Program-made: the position numbers and the translations under genes
Source: Escherichia phage vB_EcoS-606R9
Length of the DNA: 21,284 nt
Direction: 5' to 3' (one strand)
Sequence record: ON470581
Shown: in pieces, positions 2,213-21,284 of the stretch
How positions within the stretch are numbered: position 1 is the first letter of the stretch
How the letters are laid out: each line of letters begins with the position of its first letter
The notes under the pieces: generated by a model
Told to the model about the DNA's origin: nothing
Databases searched by the model: none
Seen by the model: only the letters and a program-made list of their open reading frames with translations

Positions 2213-3004
2213 ATGAGCGAGAAATTAAAGATAGTCTATCGCCCATTACAAGAATTGTCACCGTATGCGCACAACGCCAGGACGCACAGCCCTGAGCAGG
2301 TGGCACAACTGGTAGAAAGTATTAAGCAATTCGGCTGGACTAATCCGGTGCTGATTGACGAAAAGGGCGAAATTATTGCGGGTCACGGTCGTGTTATGGC
2401 GGCTGAAATGCTCAAAATGGATTCTGTTCCGGTCATTGTTCTGTCTGGCCTGACGGATGAGCAGAAAAAGGCGTACCGCCTGGCAGATAATCGCCTGCCG
2501 ATGAATGCTGGCTGGGATGAAGATCTGTTGCGGATGGAGCTGTCGGACCTAATCAATGCTGATTTTGATGTCTCCCTGACAGGCTTCATCCCGACAGAAA
2601 TTGATGAACTGTTGACGGATGTTTTGCCCGGTACAGGAAATGAGGAGGAGCCGTATACGACGAAAATTGATACGCCTGTTTATGAGCCGTCGGGCGGTAA
2701 ACCGGATATCAGTGAACTGTACGACGATACGAAAACTCAGGAGCTGATCAGCCGGATACGTTCGGCGTCCCTTGAGCCTGATATTGAGAAATTCCTCCTG
2801 TGTGCGGCAGAACGTCACACGGTGTTTAATTTCAGCAGAATTGCGGACTATTACGCTCACGCCCCCTCTGAAATTCAGTGTTTTTTCGAGGAGTCGGCGC
2901 TGGTGATCATTGATTATCAGCAGGCTATTGAAAATGGATTTGTCCGGATGACGCAGCGCATGGTGGAGATCATGCATGGTGGTGAGGAGGAGGAATATGC
3001 GTGA
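2213..3004 (+). CDS. ParB-like nuclease domain (ParB/Srx fold) protein
   Basis: N-terminal segment KIVYRPLQELSPYAHNARTHSPEQVAQLVESIKQFGWTNPVLIDEKGEIIAGHGRVMAA resembles the ParB N-terminal domain core, including the G-x-x-R motif; acidic C-terminal half. AAGG Shine-Dalgarno 6 nt upstream of the ATG. Lies between the moron and the packaging genes. Confidence 0.6.
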   Translation: MSEKLKIVYRPLQELSPYAHNARTHSPEQVAQLVESIKQFGWTNPVLIDEKGEIIAGHGRVMAAEMLKMDSVPVIVLSGLTDEQKKAYRLADNRLPMNAGWDEDLLRMELSDLINADFDVSLTGFIPTEIDELLTDVLPGTGNEEEPYTTKIDTPVYEPSGGKPDISELYDDTKTQELISRIRSASLEPDIEKFLLCAAERHTVFNFSRIADYYAHAPSEIQCFFEESALVIIDYQQAIENGFVRMTQRMVEIMHGGEEEEYA

Positions 3005-3929
3005 TGATTTTTGCGCCTTTATTCTGACTCACGGGCGACCGGACAAAGTTCTGACTTACCGGACGTTGCGTCGTGCTGGCTATACCGGGAAAATTTTTAT
3101 CGTTGTTGATGATGAAGATAAGACACGGAATCAGTACATGGCTGAATTTGGTGAACAGGTGCTGGTGTTTTCCAAAGCCGATATCGCCAGTCGTTTTGAC
3201 GAAGCCGATAATTTCTGTGACCGCCGCTCAATTTTTTACGCCCGTAATGCCTGTTTCGACCTGGCAAAACTGGTCGGGTGTAAATACTTCATTCAGCTCG
3301 ATGATGATTATCACGAGTTCCAGTTTCGGGTGGATCGCAACTATGACCAGGCCTATTTTCCGATAAGGAAACTGGATGCGATCCTTTCTGAAATGCTGGC
3401 GTACTACGAATCAATACCTGCTCTTTCCATCGCTATGTCGCAGGGCGGGGATTTTCTTGGTGACAATGGCGGCCATGCTTCGTGGGTGAAACGCAAGGCA
3501 ATGAACAGCTTTATCTGTTCGGTTGATCGACCGTTCTCATTCATGGGGCGCATTAACGAGGATGTGAATACGTACACGAATCTCGGTCGCTGTGGTGAAT
3601 TGTTTATGACGATCGGTGCTGTCCAGTTAGGGCAGAAACAGACGCAGAAAAACAGCGGCGGAATGACCGAGCTGTATCTGGATTCCGGAACCTACGTTAA
3701 AAGTTTTTACTCCGTCATGTATGCGCCGTCGTGCGTAAAAATCTCACTGATGGGTGCCAGCCATAAACGCATTCACCATCAGGTCACCTGGAACAACGCT
3801 GCAGTAAAAATCCTTCACGAAAAATACAGGAAGAAGACACCCTGCATATCAATGGGGGTGACAAATGATTCCGTATTCGAAAGTCGAGTCTCTGGCAGCG
3901 TGCCGGATGACTGCACAACAAATCGCTGA
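2997..3929 (+). CDS. Hypothetical protein with GT-A-like features (DxD-type motif); function unknown
   Basis: 310 aa from ATG 2997, which follows a strong GAGGAGGAGG Shine-Dalgarno embedded in the 3' end of the upstream gene (8-nt overlap, translational coupling); track ORF starts at 2976. Motifs IFIVVDDED and IQLDDDYHEF suggest a Rossmann-like nucleotide-sugar-binding fold, but this is motif-level only. Confidence 0.5.
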   Translation: MRDDFCAFILTHGRPDKVLTYRTLRRAGYTGKIFIVVDDEDKTRNQYMAEFGEQVLVFSKADIASRFDEADNFCDRRSIFYARNACFDLAKLVGCKYFIQLDDDYHEFQFRVDRNYDQAYFPIRKLDAILSEMLAYYESIPALSIAMSQGGDFLGDNGGHASWVKRKAMNSFICSVDRPFSFMGRINEDVNTYTNLGRCGELFMTIGAVQLGQKQTQKNSGGMTELYLDSGTYVKSFYSVMYAPSCVKISLMGASHKRIHHQVTWNNAAVKILHEKYRKKTPCISMGVTNDSVFESRVSGSVPDDCTTNR

Positions 3930-4116
3930 CGTTCTGGATGTTGATCTGAACCGACTGAAAGAAAATCGGGAAGCAATGACAGATTTTTATGCGGCCATCC
4001 GTAAGGGCAGAGCGAAAGGTGAAGCCGAGTTACGAGCGGCATTGTTTAAGCTTGCCAGAAAAGGGGATGCCTTTGCTCTGCGCGAACTACTCAGGGTGGA
4101 TAAAAATCAGGACTAA
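3907..4116 (+). CDS. Small hypothetical protein, possible helix-turn-helix / packaging-associated
   Basis: About 70 aa from ATG 3907 (track ORF from 3865); overlaps the 3' end of the upstream gene and ends 3 nt before the small terminase start; basic, helix-rich (AAIRKGRAKGEAELRAALFKLARKG). Start is uncertain. Confidence 0.35.
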   Translation: MTAQQIADVLDVDLNRLKENREAMTDFYAAIRKGRAKGEAELRAALFKLARKGDAFALRELLRVDKNQD

Positions 4117-4119
4117 CTG

Positions 4120-5214
4120 ATGAGCAGACCGGACTGGGGGGCGTTGCAGCAGGAGTATATTGCTGAATACACCCGCTCCGGTATATCTCCGGTGGCATGG
4201 TGTGAAGCAAGGGGACTGAATTACGCAACAGCCCGTCGTTACATCAAAAAAACTCCGAAAAATGCGCAGACAGAAATGTGCAAAACTGCGCAAAAAAGTG
4301 CGCAGAAAAAATCTGCGCAGACTGCACAAAAGCGGAACGAAAAATCTCAGGAAAAAAAGCCAGTATTCGATGCGGGCCTGAATGAGGGCGACGCGGAGGA
4401 ATTTTCGTTCTGTCCCGATGAATTCGGCATTTCTGACCAGCAGGCTAAGTTTGCGATGCTTGTTGCTCAGGGTAAAAAGCCGACAGAGGCGTACCGACTA
4501 GCCGGTTATGAGGGGCAAGGTGCGACAGCTAACAGCAACGCCAGTCGTATGCTTAGAAATGCCAGGGTTTTTCGCGCTATCAGCTACTTCCGCAATCAGT
4601 ACCAGAAACGCTATACCGCAGACCTGGATTTACTAGTGAGTCAGTTGATGGCTATTGTCCTGGCCGACCCCAATCAGCTTGCACAATTTCGCCGTGTTAA
4701 CTGCCGTTATTGCTGGGGCGAGAATCATCTCTACCAGTGGCGCGATATAGCAGAATTCGACAAGGCAGCGGCGCAGGCTTCCAGAGATGGCAAACCCGAA
4801 CCGGAATATGGAGGCCTCGGCTTTGTTGATAACGCCATACCCAATCCGGACTGCCCGAAGTGCTGCGGTGAGGGAACGGGACAGCTTTATATGGCTGATA
4901 CCACTCTGCTTGATGGGGATGCGCGGCAATTATATGCAGGGGCAAAATTCGGAAAATTCGGCGTTGAGATCCTGCTGGAGGATAAGGCTGCCGCCCGGCG
5001 TGAATTGTTGCGTTTGCTTTCTGCTGGCGGGGATTTATGTGCAGATAAGCGGCTACAGGAACTGGAAATTGAACGGCGCAGAATGGAAAACCAGAAGCTG
5101 CGCAAAGAGATCGAAACGGTGGAAGATAATGAACATCCCCAGCCTGTGGCGATCAATATTAATGTGGTTGATGCCAGAGTAAGGAGTGATGAAGATGATC
5201 TCTCCGACGCTTAA
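4120..5214 (+). CDS. Putative terminase small subunit (DNA-recognition component)
   Basis: Sits immediately upstream of, and overlaps, the large terminase gene; N-terminal HTH-like segment (GISPVAWCEARGLNYATARRYIKK), a Lys/Gln-rich low-complexity linker, Cys-rich segment (CRYCW...CPKCC), C-terminal coiled coil. Assigned by position and architecture. Confidence 0.5.
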   Translation: MSRPDWGALQQEYIAEYTRSGISPVAWCEARGLNYATARRYIKKTPKNAQTEMCKTAQKSAQKKSAQTAQKRNEKSQEKKPVFDAGLNEGDAEEFSFCPDEFGISDQQAKFAMLVAQGKKPTEAYRLAGYEGQGATANSNASRMLRNARVFRAISYFRNQYQKRYTADLDLLVSQLMAIVLADPNQLAQFRRVNCRYCWGENHLYQWRDIAEFDKAAAQASRDGKPEPEYGGLGFVDNAIPNPDCPKCCGEGTGQLYMADTTLLDGDARQLYAGAKFGKFGVEILLEDKAAARRELLRLLSAGGDLCADKRLQELEIERRRMENQKLRKEIETVEDNEHPQPVAININVVDARVRSDEDDLSDA

Positions 5215-6496
5215 TGTGCCTCAGGCGCGATTTCTTTCAATGCCCCATAAATTTAAAGCCTATATTGCTGGTTTTGGCTCGGGCAAAACATGGGTTGGGT
5301 GTGGCGGCATATGCAAGGGGATTTGGGAGCATCCAGGTATAAATCAGGGATATTTTGCGCCAACGTATCCCCAAATTCGCGATATTTTTTACCCTACAGT
5401 GGAAGAAGTTGCTGCTGACTGGGGATTGAACGTAAAAATTAATGAGGGAAATAAAGAGGTTCACTTTTATTACGGACGCCAGTATCGGGGAACCACTATC
5501 TGCAGATCGATGGAGAAGCCACAAACGATCGTCGGTTTCAAAATTGGTAATGCGTTGGTGGATGAACTGGACATTTTGCCGAAGGAAAAAGCCAGAACGG
5601 CGTGGCGCAAGATAATTGCGCGTATGCGTTATAAGATTGATGGACTTCGCAACGGTATTGACGTTACAACCACGCCGGAAGGATTCAAATTTGTCTACGA
5701 GCAGTTTGTTAAAGCCGTGCGTGAAAAAACAGAGCTGGCCTCACTGTATGGTCTGGTGCAGGCATCTACTTTCGATAATGAAAAGAACCTGCCAGCAGAT
5801 TACATTCCTTCGCTTCTTGAATCATACCCTCCAGAGCTGATTAAAGCCTATCTGCGAGGACAGTTTACTAACCTGACAAGTGGTACTGTTTACCATCAGT
5901 TTGACCGGAAACTGAATAATTGCGAAGAAGTGGAGCAGCCAGGGGAGCCGATTTATATTGGGATGGATTTTAACGTTGGAAAGATGGCGGGAATCGTCCA
6001 TGTGCTGCGTTTGGGGCTTCCATGTGCGGTAACTGAAATCATCAATGCCTACGATACGCCGGATATGATCCGCATCATTAAAGAACGCTTCTGGCTGTAT
6101 GATGGGAATGATTACCGGAAAGTGAGGGAAATTTATATTTATCCAGATGCTTCCGGGGATTCCAGAAAATCAAGTAACGCAAGTACGACGGATATAGCCC
6201 AGCTTAAGCAGGCTGGTTTTAACGTTGTGGTGAACAGCTCGAACCCGCCAGTAAAAGATCGCGTTAACTCAATGAATGCAATGTTCTGCAATGCCAATGG
6301 TGAGCGTCGCTATAAAGTTAATGTGAAGCGTTGCCCGTTATATGCCGAATCTCTGGAGCAACAGGTCTGGGATGAGAAGGGGGAGCCTGATAAAAAATCT
6401 GGCAATGATCACCCGAATGATGCCGGAGGTTATTTCATCGTTAAGCAATTCCCTATTGTCAAACCGACCGGAAGAGTCACATCACTTCGGATTTAA
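5195..6496 (+). CDS. Terminase large subunit (ATPase/nuclease)
   Basis: Walker A-like YIAGFGSGKT near the N-terminus and Walker B-like ALVDELD; sits between the putative small terminase and portal genes. ATG 5195 chosen for its spacing from AAGGAG at 5181-5186; alternative starts at 5186 and 5189. Confidence 0.8.
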   Translation: MISPTLNVPQARFLSMPHKFKAYIAGFGSGKTWVGCGGICKGIWEHPGINQGYFAPTYPQIRDIFYPTVEEVAADWGLNVKINEGNKEVHFYYGRQYRGTTICRSMEKPQTIVGFKIGNALVDELDILPKEKARTAWRKIIARMRYKIDGLRNGIDVTTTPEGFKFVYEQFVKAVREKTELASLYGLVQASTFDNEKNLPADYIPSLLESYPPELIKAYLRGQFTNLTSGTVYHQFDRKLNNCEEVEQPGEPIYIGMDFNVGKMAGIVHVLRLGLPCAVTEIINAYDTPDMIRIIKERFWLYDGNDYRKVREIYIYPDASGDSRKSSNASTTDIAQLKQAGFNVVVNSSNPPVKDRVNSMNAMFCNANGERRYKVNVKRCPLYAESLEQQVWDEKGEPDKKSGNDHPNDAGGYFIVKQFPIVKPTGRVTSLRI

Positions 6497-6498
6497 TT

Positions 6499-7905
6499 AT
6501 GGCTGATATATCAACACCCAACCTCGACTATAACGATATGCTGGAGGCGTGGGATATTAACGACGCACTGATGGGCGGTACGCTTGAAATGCGCAGGCAG
6601 GGGGAAAATTATCTCCCAAAATGGCCTAACGAAGATGAAGACGCTTATAAAAAACGCCTGTCTGTGGCTACGCTACTTCCTGTGTATGAAGAAAGCATCA
6701 AGCAAAATATTGGGCGCATATTTGCAGAGCCGACAGTATTGAGTGAGGAAACGCCGGCAAAAATCAGGGAATATGCAGAAAATATCGACATGGAGGGAAG
6801 CCGACTGGATGTGTGGGCGCAGCAATTTTTCAGCCTCGCATTTCAGTATGGTGTGGCACATGCGCTGGTGGACTATCCACGAACGGATATGAAAGAGATT
6901 CGGACAAAAGCCGATGAAAACGCGGCCGGTAGTCGTCCGTACGTTACGATGCTGAATCCACGCCAGGTTATTGGATGGAAATCGAAAGTTGAAAAAGGGA
7001 AAGTTGTTCTCACTGATTTGCGTATAAAAGAGGTCATCATTATTGATGGTGATGATTTCGGGCAGAAGAAGGTGGAGCAGATCCGCCATATTATGCCCCG
7101 TCGAGTTGAAATTTATCGACGTAGCGAAGGCACTAATGGCGAATCTGTCTGGACGCTTCATGAGTCATGGAATACCAGCCGTGATGATATTCCTCTGGTA
7201 ACACTGTACACGAAGAAAACAGGATTTATGCGTGGTACACCGCCATTGCTTAATCTTGGCTTGCTGAATATCAAGCACTGGCAAAGCCAGAGCGAGCAGG
7301 ACAATATTCTTCATGTTGCCCGCGTTCCATTGCTGGTGGCCTACGGGCTGGACAGGAATGAAGAACTGACGGTTGGTGCATCCACCGCTACGATTTTTGA
7401 GGACAGAACAAAAAATGGCCTCGAATATGTTGAACATAGTGGCGCAGCGATAGAATCTGGCGAAACATCACTTGAGAAGCTGGAAAATCAGATGCGTCAT
7501 GCCGGCGCTAAACTTCTGCGTGCTGAAAATACATCCACCAAATCTGTTGATCAGACTAATGAAGAGCGAATGCAGGAAAACTCGCCGCTTTATACAATGG
7601 CGAACTCCCTCGAAGATGCCCTCGATAATATTCTCCAGATAATGGCGGAATGGATCGGAGAGAGTTGCGGTGGCAATGTGGATGTGCGCACTGAACTGGA
7701 TGTATCTGCCCAGGTGTTTGACTCATCCTCCGCGCTGGCTGTTCAGTCATTGCGTCAGGGCGGTGATATACGTCAGATTGATGCGATTCGGGTGTTGCAG
7801 GCGTTGAAATTTATCGATCAGGATTCCCGTCCAGAGGAAGTGATCGATGAATTAAAAAATCAGAGTGTAATGCTGATGGAAATCAATGATGCAAACCGTG
7901 AATGA
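6499..7905 (+). CDS. Portal protein (putative)
   Basis: 468-aa ORF starting 3 nt after the large terminase stop; size and position typical of a portal gene. No motif verified. Confidence 0.6.
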   Translation: MADISTPNLDYNDMLEAWDINDALMGGTLEMRRQGENYLPKWPNEDEDAYKKRLSVATLLPVYEESIKQNIGRIFAEPTVLSEETPAKIREYAENIDMEGSRLDVWAQQFFSLAFQYGVAHALVDYPRTDMKEIRTKADENAAGSRPYVTMLNPRQVIGWKSKVEKGKVVLTDLRIKEVIIIDGDDFGQKKVEQIRHIMPRRVEIYRRSEGTNGESVWTLHESWNTSRDDIPLVTLYTKKTGFMRGTPPLLNLGLLNIKHWQSQSEQDNILHVARVPLLVAYGLDRNEELTVGASTATIFEDRTKNGLEYVEHSGAAIESGETSLEKLENQMRHAGAKLLRAENTSTKSVDQTNEERMQENSPLYTMANSLEDALDNILQIMAEWIGESCGGNVDVRTELDVSAQVFDSSSALAVQSLRQGGDIRQIDAIRVLQALKFIDQDSRPEEVIDELKNQSVMLMEINDANRE

Positions 7906-19117: not shown

Positions 19118-19825
19118 ATGACAGNNNNNNNNNNNNNNNNNNNNNNNNNNNNNNNNNNNNNNTCGGAAGGGGAAAGATATTTTCCCTGCGTGAATATCTC
19201 CGGTGAGCCGGAGGAGTATTTCCGGATGTCGCCGGAGGACTGGCTGCGGGCAGAGATGCAGGGTGAGATTGTGGCGCTGGTCCACAGCCACCCCGGTGGT
19301 ATGCCCTGGCTGAGTGAGACCGACCGGCGGCTGCAGGTGCAGAGTGATTTGCCGTGGTGGCTGGTTTGCCGGGGAGCGATTCACAAGTTCCGCTGTGTGC
19401 CACATCTTTCCGGGCGGCGCTTTGAGCACGGGGTGACGGACTGTTACACGCTGTTCCGGGATGCTTACCATCTGGCGGGGATTGAGATGCCGGATTTTCA
19501 TCGCGAGGATGACTGGTGGCGTAACGGTCAGAATCTCTATCTGGATAATCTGGAGGCCACAGGGCTATATCAGGTGCCGTTGTCAGCGGCGCAGCCGGGC
19601 GATGTGCTGCTGTGCTGTTTTGGTTCATCGGTGCCGAATCATGCCGCCATTTACTGTGGTGACAGCGAGCTGCTGCACCATATTCCTGAACAACTGAGTA
19701 AACGAGAGAGGTACACCGACAAATGGCAGCGACGCACACACTCCCTCTGGCGTCACCGGGCATGGCACGCATCTGCCTTTACGGGGATTTGCAACGATTT
19801 GGCCGCCGCATCGACCTTCGAGTGA
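19118..19825 (+). CDS. K: Tail tip assembly protein K (JAB/MPN plus NlpC/P60-like), interrupted near the N-terminus by an assembly gap
   Basis: JAMM-type motif HSHPGGMPWLSETD and an NlpC/P60-like Cys/His region (GVTDCYTLFRDAYH ... PNHAAIY); the last 103 nt overlap gene I, as lambda K/I do. ATG 19118 is 3 nt after the L stop; ATG 19226 would give a 199-aa product and is an alternative start. The true length of the N-gap at 19125-19162 is unknown. Confidence 0.8.
   Translation: MTXXXXXXXXXXXXXSEGERYFPCVNISGEPEEYFRMSPEDWLRAEMQGEIVALVHSHPGGMPWLSETDRRLQVQSDLPWWLVCRGAIHKFRCVPHLSGRRFEHGVTDCYTLFRDAYHLAGIEMPDFHREDDWWRNGQNLYLDNLEATGLYQVPLSAAQPGDVLLCCFGSSVPNHAAIYCGDSELLHHIPEQLSKRERYTDKWQRRTHSLWRHRAWHASAFTGICNDLAAASTFE
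19125..19162. other. Assembly gap (run of 38 N)
   Basis: Literal N characters in the sequence; a scaffolding or masked gap, not biology. Confidence 0.99.
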
Positions 19826-20430: not shown

Positions 20431-21284
20431 ATGGGTAAAGGCAGNNNNNNNNNNTCCCGCGCGAAGCGAAGGACAACCTGAAATCATCCCAGATGCTGAG
20501 CGTGATAGACGCCATCAGTGAAGGGCCGATTGAAGGTCCGGTGGATGGATTAAAAAGCGTGCTGCTGAACAGTACGCCGGTGCTGGACAGTGAGGGGAAT
20601 ACCAATATCTCCGGCGTCACGGTGGTGTTCCGGGCAGGTGAGCAGGAGCAGTCACCGCCGGAGGGATTTGAATCCTCCGGTTCCGAGACGGTGCTGGGTA
20701 CGGAAGTGAAATATGAAACGCCGATCACCCGGACCATCACGTCGGCAAACATCGACCGTCTGCGCTTTACCTTCGGTGTACAGGCACTGGTGGAAACCAC
20801 CTCAAAGGGAGACAGGAATCCGTCGGAAGTCCGCCTGCTGGTTCAGATACAGCGTAACGGTGGCTGGGTGACGGAAAAAGACATCACCATTAAGGGCAAA
20901 ACCACCTCGCAGTATCTGGCCTCGGTGGTGGTGGGTAACCTGCCGCCGCGCCCGTTTAATATCCGGATGCGCAGGATGACGCCGGACAGCACCACAGACC
21001 AGCTGCAGAACAAAACGCTCTGGTCGTCATACACCGAGATCATCGATGTGAAACAGTGCTACCCGAACACGGCACTGGTCGGCGTACAGGTGGACTCGGA
21101 GCAGTTCGGCAGCCAGCAGGTGAGCCGTAATTATCATCTTCGCGGGCGCATTCTGCAGGTGCCGTCGAACTATAACCCGCAGACGCGACAATACAGCGGT
21201 ATCTGGGACGGAACGTTAAAACCAGCATACAGCAACAACATGGCCTGGTGTCTGTGGGATATGCTGACCCACCCGCGCTACGGC
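20431..21284 (+). CDS. J: Tip attachment / central tail fibre protein J, N-terminal part (continues beyond the window; reading frame broken by a 10-N gap)
   Basis: ATG 20431 with GTGAGGA SD; encodes MGKG..., then after the gap PREAKDNLKSSQMLSVIDAISEGPIEGPVDGLKSVLLNSTPVLD... through ...MAWCLWDMLTHPRYG, near-identical to the lambda gpJ N-terminus from memory. Frame before and after the gap differs, so the gap length is arbitrary. Confidence 0.9.
20445..20454. other. Assembly gap (run of 10 N) inside the 5' end of J
   Basis: Literal N characters; the apparent frame change across it is an assembly artefact. Confidence 0.99.

Follow-up and report, generated by a model that had tools for sequence, protein, structure and literature searches.

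A hexamer array inside the small terminase gene of a Rac-like prophage is a candidate pac site on the plan of phage P1

Introduction

Packaging (pac) sites are experimentally known for a handful of phages, and most headful prophages remain unpredictable from sequence in this respect. Bacillus phage SPP1, which packages by headful, has a pac site (pacL/pacC/pacR) that is bound by G1P, a small terminase subunit (TerS) of the Terminase_2 family. The pac site of phage P1 is a 161-bp site in pacA with seven TGATCA/G hexamers carrying Dam sites (PMC10028697; see also PMC11260489), and synonymous recoding of these hexamers makes the titre ~9-fold lower, which shows that efficient packaging depends on them (PMC10028697). 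The pac site of P22 has likewise been described (PMC10996546 and PMC11260489). Here we analyse an array of short repeats at positions 4263–4328 of a 21,284-nt stretch of Escherichia phage vB_EcoS-606R9 (sequence record ON470581; the whole stretch is referred to as the window), which lies inside the phage's own terS gene. Our best reading of the sequence comparisons is that the window carries the P1 pac plan with a different hexamer, on a Terminase_2-type TerS: the array is probably a cis-acting recognition site for the TerS in whose gene it is written, and the pac element of a headful Rac-like prophage.

The locus resembles several other described systems in part. As in SPP1, repeated short boxes lie in or next to the gene of a Terminase_2 TerS, in A-rich, bendable DNA where the helix-turn-helix (HTH) domains of an oligomer would engage several boxes; the SPP1 boxes, however, have other sequences and are read by the Terminase_2 HTH itself, whereas here the boxes are probably read by an extra N-terminal domain (the N-domain), with the Terminase_2 HTH as a second, unassigned DNA-binding element. 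In P22 and Sf6, as is proposed here, pac lies inside the TerS coding sequence of a headful enterobacterial phage, and site and recognition domain are co-inherited, but P22 has a single asymmetric site of ~22 bp with no hexamer array, and its TerS is of a different fold and family. Two systems of phage lambda are also comparable. The ori-lambda iterons, sites of the O N-domain, are written in the flexible-linker part of the O gene, although these iterons are 18–19 bp long, form a replication origin and belong to an unrelated protein family. In cosB, too, a TerS (gpNu1) uses its N-terminal HTH to bind a set of short repeats, the R-sites, and so positions the large subunit; the R-sites differ in lying outside the gene, in depending on integration host factor (IHF) and in serving cohesive ends, and the large terminase subunit (TerL) of the window is not of the lambda gpA type.

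Results

Six TGCGCA-type boxes are clustered in the linker region of terS

The terS gene, its domains and the boxes of the array are as follows.

4120–5214, plus strand: TerS gene (364 aa); an HTH-like domain at the N-terminus is followed by a linker that is disordered and rich in Lys, Gln and Ala, and then by a Terminase_2 body carrying two CxxC pairs
4120–4251, plus strand: N-domain, 44 residues, putative recognition domain; helix 3 is N34-Y-A-T-A-R39-R-Y41
4252–4416, plus strand: flexible linker, approximately residues 45–99, joining the N-domain to the Terminase_2 body; the box array is in its first half
4263–4268: box 1, TGCGCA (TGCGCAGA), frame 2, encoding N-A-Q; intact in 22 of 22 E. 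coli-lineage alleles
4277–4282: box 2, TGTGCA (TGTGCAAA), degenerate, frame 1, encoding M-C-K; TGCGCA in most related alleles (M-R-K or V-R-K)
4287–4292: box 3, TGCGCA (TGCGCAAA), encoding T-A-Q
4299–4304: box 4, TGCGCA (TGCGCAGA), encoding S-A-Q; TGCGCG by mutation in some relatives
4314–4319: box 5, TGCGCA (TGCGCAGA), encoding S-A-Q
4323–4328: box 6, TGCACA (TGCACAAA), degenerate, encoding T-A-Q; TGCGCA in many related alleles

The six boxes lie within 66 bp, at terS codons 48–70 (TerS nt 144–209), and comprise four exact copies of TGCGCA (within 52 bp) and two one-mismatch copies (TGTGCA and TGCACA). A first-pass annotation of this DNA had described the motif as followed each time by an A-run, and this was seen for every box, the next base being A or G and the A-run coming after it; A makes up 47% of the array region versus 27% of the whole window. 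The motif positions given in that annotation were right to within 1 nt, the exact starts being 4277 (not ~4278) and 4314 (not ~4313). Exact TGCGCA occurs 11 times in the 21.3-kb window, and four of these 11 fall inside the 52 bp. In 300 first-order Markov simulations with the dinucleotide make-up of the window, the maximum number of exact copies per 70-nt span was always below four and was three in two of 300, while for the one-mismatch family the observed maximum of six compares with three as the highest simulated. The next exact TGCGCA past the array is at 5099, and the window has a single array.

Tandem Repeats Finder reported periods of 12 and 36 for the array. Start-to-start spacings between boxes in the window are 14, 10, 12, 15 and 9 bp (mean 12), so that the helical-turn spacing noted in the first-pass annotation holds loosely here; it is not conserved, as spacings of 7, 9, 10, 12, 14 and 16 bp occur across the family. 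This variation gives no support to strict helical phasing of the boxes.

The array region codes for KNAQTEMCKTAQKSAQKKSAQTAQKRN within the 364-aa open reading frame (ORF) at 4120–5214. This agrees with the earlier description of a Lys/Gln/Ala-rich stretch inside a small terminase gene, as do the matches of the protein itself: TerS residues 122–321 match Pfam Terminase_2 (PF03592) at 35.1 bits, above the gathering cut-off of 26.1, and TerS matches phrog_51 (E = 2e-76). Its N-terminal 80 residues also match phrog_370 and phrog_1711. The window matches ON470587.1 (vB_EcoS-611R4; a Rac-like lambdoid prophage contig) at identical coordinates, and the gene is annotated there as terminase small subunit; related GenBank records are partial contigs or derive from prophages. 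Directly downstream of the array is a 12-nt inverted repeat, GAACGAAAAATC / GAATTTTCGTTC (4335–4346 and 4399–4410), whose arms are 52 nt apart and 92% complementary.

Conservation points to the DNA hexamers rather than the encoded peptide

About 150 homologous loci were compared overall. Eighty loci came from one-genome-per-species bacterial assemblies, with the 44-residue N-domain as probe; further loci were 80 close relatives, 58 Shiga toxin (Stx)-phage-type loci and individual phages. The class with A-R-R-Y/H in helix 3 provided 71 distinct linkers, which contain 351 copies of TGCGCA: 262 in frame 2, encoding x-A-Q/H, 72 in frame 1, encoding L/V/M-R-x, and 17 in frame 0, encoding C-A. Within the window, box 2 has a reading frame that differs from that of the other boxes, and the 'EMCK' encoded there reads 'EMRK' in alleles with TGCGCA at this box. 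In Klebsiella phages with a TerS of ~39% identity, six TGCGCA occupy the equivalent place, and one Klebsiella terS writes the hexamer in all three frames (xxT GCG CAx, tTG CGC Axx and TGC GCA). Across Escherichia, Klebsiella, Aeromonas and Vibrio the exact hexamer is kept while the peptide differs.

Codon choice was examined at the same loci. Of 276 x-Ala-Gln in the linkers, 244 (88%) are written T GCG CAR, versus 34 of 328 (10%) elsewhere (Fisher p = 5e-92, which is overstated since the codon counts are phylogenetically non-independent, although the effect size is very large), and this spelling is independent of the preceding residue x. The equivalent codon test in the class with TGCGAA boxes, described below, gave 81% in the linker versus 2% elsewhere. 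Counted from the start codon, boxes per 60 nt number 3.5 at +120 to +179, 1.2 at +180 to +239 and ~0.015 in the 3-kb flanks, a box density ~240-fold above background. Synonymous-site conservation across homologues, which the first-pass annotation had named as a check, thus clearly favours a DNA site, both in codon spelling and in the use of three frames. Because the hexamer is kept in three frames while peptide, spacers and copy number vary, we read the repeat as a DNA site. By this comparison, selection acts on the DNA hexamers rather than on the encoded peptide, and it is the boxes that dictate the linker sequence.

At the protein level, the earlier suggestion of a linker was also correct. 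In the AlphaFold2 model block-mean pLDDT (predicted local distance difference test) over residues 41–90 is 44–62, with values <50 for most of residues 57–90, and from one homologue to another the linker is poorly conserved in both length and sequence. Within the E. coli lineage the six positions of the boxes are homologous, and alleles there hold 4–7 intact boxes and show unit-sized indels of 9, 12 and 27 nt. Such indels would also be expected if the segment were a low-complexity peptide linker alone, a (T/S)AQK repeat made by replication slippage for flexibility or non-specific DNA contacts, as would its predicted disorder and its richness in Lys, Gln and Ala. We consider this reading contradicted by the frame and codon data and the least likely of the explanations weighed here, given that the hexamer persists in three frames that give different residues, that the Ala codon and the last base of the codon before it stay the same whatever amino acid precedes, and that widely diverged hosts keep the exact hexamer with a different peptide.

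TGCGCA is its own reverse complement, and hairpins of the self-complementary UGCGCA in terS mRNA might instead regulate translation or stability. The window RNA 4245–4345 does fold strongly (−29.8 kcal/mol, z = −5.1), and other TGCGCA-class linkers gave z-scores of −2.6 to −4.0. However, a strong fold follows automatically from a repeated palindrome, and TGCGAA arrays built from direct repeats show no structure (Yersinia z = −0.6, Pasteurella z = +0.3); the boxes are free to vary in number and spacing, which leaves no conserved pairing scheme, and the pairing of box type with a residue of the upstream helix would go unexplained. A regulatory role at the RNA level is therefore very unlikely. 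RNA structure as the primary function was rejected, the fold being a by-product of the repeated palindrome and absent from the direct-repeat TGCGAA arrays.

Two kinds of altered locus were also observed. In the Rac-SA53 'gpOterS' fusion (L002, 2412–3440) the N-domain is deleted, with the deletion endpoint inside the array, and three of the four substitutions that separate its 63-nt remnant from the window hit boxes; this single anecdote is consistent with relaxed constraint after loss of the reader domain. Elsewhere, changes in A-run length (window 4292–4311 and 4351–4357) produce a frameshifted linker, giving many database 'proteins' of ~86 aa (P0024–P0049) and several truncated genomic ORFs (loci L094, L117, L133, L140 and L149), which may be sequencing errors, pseudogenes or real slippage variants.

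Box type changes with helix 3 of the N-domain

The array always lies directly after the 44-residue N-domain, which follows the pattern (M)xxPDWxxLQxxFLxxHxxTGISPKDWCExxGLNYxTARRYIK. AlphaFold2 places helices at residues 6–20, 24–31 and 35–41 of the N-domain, with block-mean pLDDT of 85–87 over residues 11–40. When this model was compared with solved structures using Foldseek, the top PDB matches were almost all HTH DNA-binding proteins or regulators, none of them significant (best E = 0.6), and sub-threshold sequence matches were to HTH_Tnp_1, IS66 TnpA and transposase PHROG families. No Pfam or NCBIfam family spans the N-domain, and a sequence search of solved structures returned nothing for the N-domain or TerL; its one match, a marginal one, paired the Terminase_2 HTH with 'Pam5 small terminase'. 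Six proteins (P0096, P0147, P0176, P0177, P0215 and P0216) contain 4–7 tandem N-domain-like units (W..E...SG.S...WC...GI...TF..W). The sub-threshold matches could place the N-domain in a wider superfamily of transposase-type HTHs.

Box type was found to follow the sequence of helix 3. A-R39-R-Y/H is accompanied by TGCGCA in 69 of 69 complete domains, and A-K39-R-Y by TGCGAA or its inverse TTCGCA in 14 of 14, often as the palindrome TGCGAATTCGCA. TGCGAA boxes too are written in several frames; in Pasteurella phage Pmp11, for instance, they encode Cys-Glu and Ala-Asn. Klebsiella phage RothC and Yersinia vB_YenM_29.18 also have a TerS of the K class. No column other than residue 39 splits the TGCGCA class from the TGCGAA class, and two N-domains that differ in it (K in L091, R in L101) are otherwise identical at 41 of 42 positions. 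A further box type is seen in VT2-Sakai/933W-type alleles, where the helix A-R-T-R is found with 4–5 copies of GATCAT (13 alleles); phage GER2 and its relatives, with the helix A-R-R-Y on nearly the same TerS body, have 5–7 copies of TGCGCA (five alleles). The GATCAT boxes of Stx2 phages (L171, 2630–2690; L174–L212) have an exact 12-bp period, encode the peptide IDHEIDHKTDHEIDHD and contain a Dam GATC in every box, which suggests that packaging in Stx phages may be Dam-controlled.

At least three distinct TerS bodies (phrog_51/Terminase_2, phrog_370 and phrog_32222) carry the domain-plus-array cassette. Since the site lies within 20 bp of the codons of the reading helix, domain and site would be inherited or exchanged as one cassette, and this would explain its presence on unrelated TerS bodies. 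Adjacency explains only co-inheritance; that every box changes in concert when helix 3 changes is the reason to propose that the N-domain reads the boxes.

A search that started from the motif gave a related picture. In IMG/VR, 76 of 120 sampled arrays (≥3 close TGCGCA) lie in TerS genes with the N-domain; the remaining 44 comprise tandem repeats in proteins, other repeats between genes, an O-like replication initiator and phrog_1206 TerS (L335, L314), and the N-domain was undetected in all 44 of these loci. In the phrog_1206 TerS (L335 ~6055–6718, minus strand; L314), three TGCGCA that encode Val/Leu-Arg follow an N-terminal HTH of distant similarity, and in L346 the gene of a lambda-O-like replication initiator itself contains iterons with TGCGCA.

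The boxes could in principle be targets of another protein, whether a host factor, a phage regulator, a methyltransferase or a restriction system. TGCGCA (a type II restriction-enzyme palindrome), TGCGAATTCGCA and the GATC-containing units are all palindromic, like many regulator and restriction–modification sites, and genes for a TET-associated glycosyltransferase and a ParB-like protein lie just upstream of the terminases. Neighbour genes differ among loci, however, while the array stays with the N-domain; box type tracks TerS helix 3 and not host genus, and only a minority of arrays, themselves unrelated, lie outside such TerS genes. Recognition by another protein is, on this evidence, extremely unlikely.

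The arrangement of domain and site resembles that of P1 pacA

The N-domain aligned with residues 3–40 of P1 PacA in hhalign with a probability of 92.4% (E = 5e-7, 38 columns). Consistent with this, residues 6–80 of the window TerS match phrog_1711, the P1 PacA family (E = 3.8e-5), and P1 PacA matches phrog_370 (E = 7e-5). Similarity to full-length PacA is absent: only residues 6–80 match phrog_1711, and the body is Terminase_2/phrog_51. A tblastn search with the PacA N-terminus recovered P1-like phages only, with no sequence bridge between the families.

The annotated P1 genome has TGATCA at pacA nt 194–233 and 324–380, around the annotated IHF site and cleavage positions, in two frames. In both P1 and the window, hexamers inside the small-subunit gene start ~20–25 codons past an N-terminal HTH-like domain and fall in more than one frame, the two N-domains share a remote homology, and the Stx-phage members of the family use a hexamer, GATCAT, that contains GATC as in P1. 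The differences are that the window hexamer is TGCGCA and not TGATCA/G, so that there is no Dam site and methylation control is not expected; that the window has one array of six where P1 has 4 + 3 hexamers flanking the IHF site and cut site; that the TerS body is Terminase_2 with CxxC pairs as opposed to phrog_1711; and that this phage is lambdoid (Rac-like) while P1 is a plasmid prophage. Klebsiella-type terS genes (L003 2869–2925 and L004 2790–2834; gene nt 348–403) have a second cluster of three TGCGCA (V-A-Q, I-A-Q and V-R-T) ~150 bp downstream of the main array, a bipartite layout like HEX4/HEX3 of P1; the window is without this second cluster.

Binding of TerS to the array need not serve packaging, and TerS might bind it for autoregulation, throttling late-operon transcription or the expression of terS and terL. 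All the arguments for binding by the N-domain fit this equally well, the site is inside the gene and upstream of terL, and there is a single array with no P1-like second half-site or IHF site. Nevertheless, P1 pacA/pac, the only experimentally studied homologue of the arrangement, is a packaging site, and the cassette moves between TerS bodies with packaging specificity, as expected of a pac determinant. To our knowledge, every known in-gene TerS site (P22, SPP1, P1) is a pac site, which also counts against autoregulation. We regard autoregulation as unlikely, and packaging as the probable role of the array.

Terminase relationships suggest headful packaging

The genes that follow terS in the window are listed here.

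5186–6496, plus strand: TerL, matching Pfam Terminase_6N (E = 4e-33) and Terminase_6C (E = 3e-10); presumed nuclease/ATPase
6499–7905: portal gene, after TerL

The closest phage TerLs are of Kagunavirus and Jerseyvirus types, both from phages with headful packaging. F116-like generalized transducers (PMC5217972) have a related TerS body, and a published classification of TerLs counts 933W-type terminases as headful (PMC6029569). Because of these relationships, together with the Terminase_6N/6C assignment of TerL, a cos mechanism appears unlikely.

Upstream of the terminases, the window encodes a ParB_N-like protein and a TET-associated glycosyltransferase (2213–3004 and 2976–3929; Pfam TAGT, E = 8e-35), preceded by a TrkG-like gene, a Rac hallmark, at 600–2075. 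The ParB_N-like and TAGT genes could form a module for DNA modification within a Rac-like prophage; no TET/JBP gene was found among the window ORFs examined. An 83-aa ORF (3865–4116) adjoins terS upstream and matches positions 145–218 of phrog_309, 'terminase small subunit' (E = 8e-23), with no Pfam or NCBIfam family; it could encode a second small DNA-packaging accessory protein. In the tail-gene part, runs of N (masked or unresolved) are present at 19125–19162 and 20445–20454.

Discussion

The first-pass annotation had raised the possibility that this repeat is a pac-like terminase site, and the synonymous-site test, the co-variation of helix 3 with box type and the homology to P1 PacA/pac lend support to that proposal. 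The mechanism we envisage starts from six TGCGCA-type boxes in the DNA for the disordered linker, right after the HTH-like domain of TerS. As judged by comparison, selection is on the hexamers themselves and the hexamer type switches with the sequence of helix 3. The N-domain has a remote homologue in the PacA N-terminus of P1, the P1 pac hexamers being equally placed in pacA. Several N-domains of an oligomeric TerS would then bind the close boxes of concatemeric DNA to form a nucleoprotein complex, and this complex would recruit TerL (5186–6496), leading to a nearby cut and a headful packaging series.

Several observations weigh against this interpretation. Domain and array are adjacent, so that co-inheritance alone proves little and the argument rests on the concerted box switches, of which perhaps only two are independent; the 10 R/K changes counted on a 114-nt neighbour-joining tree are not relied on, as the tree is poorly resolved and recombination is likely. 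Residue 39 is not the sole determinant of box type, since P1 PacA has T-A-R-R-Y yet uses TGATCA, and some distant N-domain members are without an obvious array (L102, L164; P0171, P0199, P0200). At spacings of 7–9 bp, simultaneous occupation of all boxes by HTH domains is unlikely. The PacA homology is remote, and plain hmmsearch (HMMER) reported none; the IHF consensus is not matched within 3294–6699, and the single array is unlike the bipartite P1 site. Finally, open-access papers and bioRxiv, the literature covered, yielded no description of the motif or of a pac site for 933W- or Rac-type TerS.

What appears to be new here is a set of hexamer specificities for the P1-type in-gene pac design, across a whole family that includes the Stx phages; the P1 design itself was known. 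There is a fair chance, somewhat below even, that these loci share a portable packaging-specificity cassette, made of a PacA-type HTH and its own hexamer array with a code that is close to one residue for one base (R39/TGCGCA, K39/TGCGAA, R-T-R/GATCAT). Such a cassette would be common to P1, the Stx phages 933W and VT2-Sakai and Rac-like prophages, grafted on at least three unrelated TerS bodies, in a family whose TerS N-domains form ~190 clusters at 50% identity. If the code is true, pac sites would be predictable from sequence for many enterobacterial prophages, packaging and transduction specificity would be re-programmable by point mutation together with recoded boxes, and for the packaging of Stx phages one would predict Dam control like that of P1.

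For the family as a whole, a candidate pac site can now be read from sequence in widespread prophages of enterobacteria, Aeromonas and Pasteurella, including Rac-like elements and the medically important Stx2 phages. This ties the group to the P1 paradigm and to a simple, testable recognition rule. The locus is also a clean case of an overlapping DNA site that dictates the amino acids of a coding sequence. The rule bears on where generalized and lateral transduction start, on the hijacking of packaging by satellites or plasmids, and on phagemid-style delivery (compare the recoding of P1; PMC10028697).

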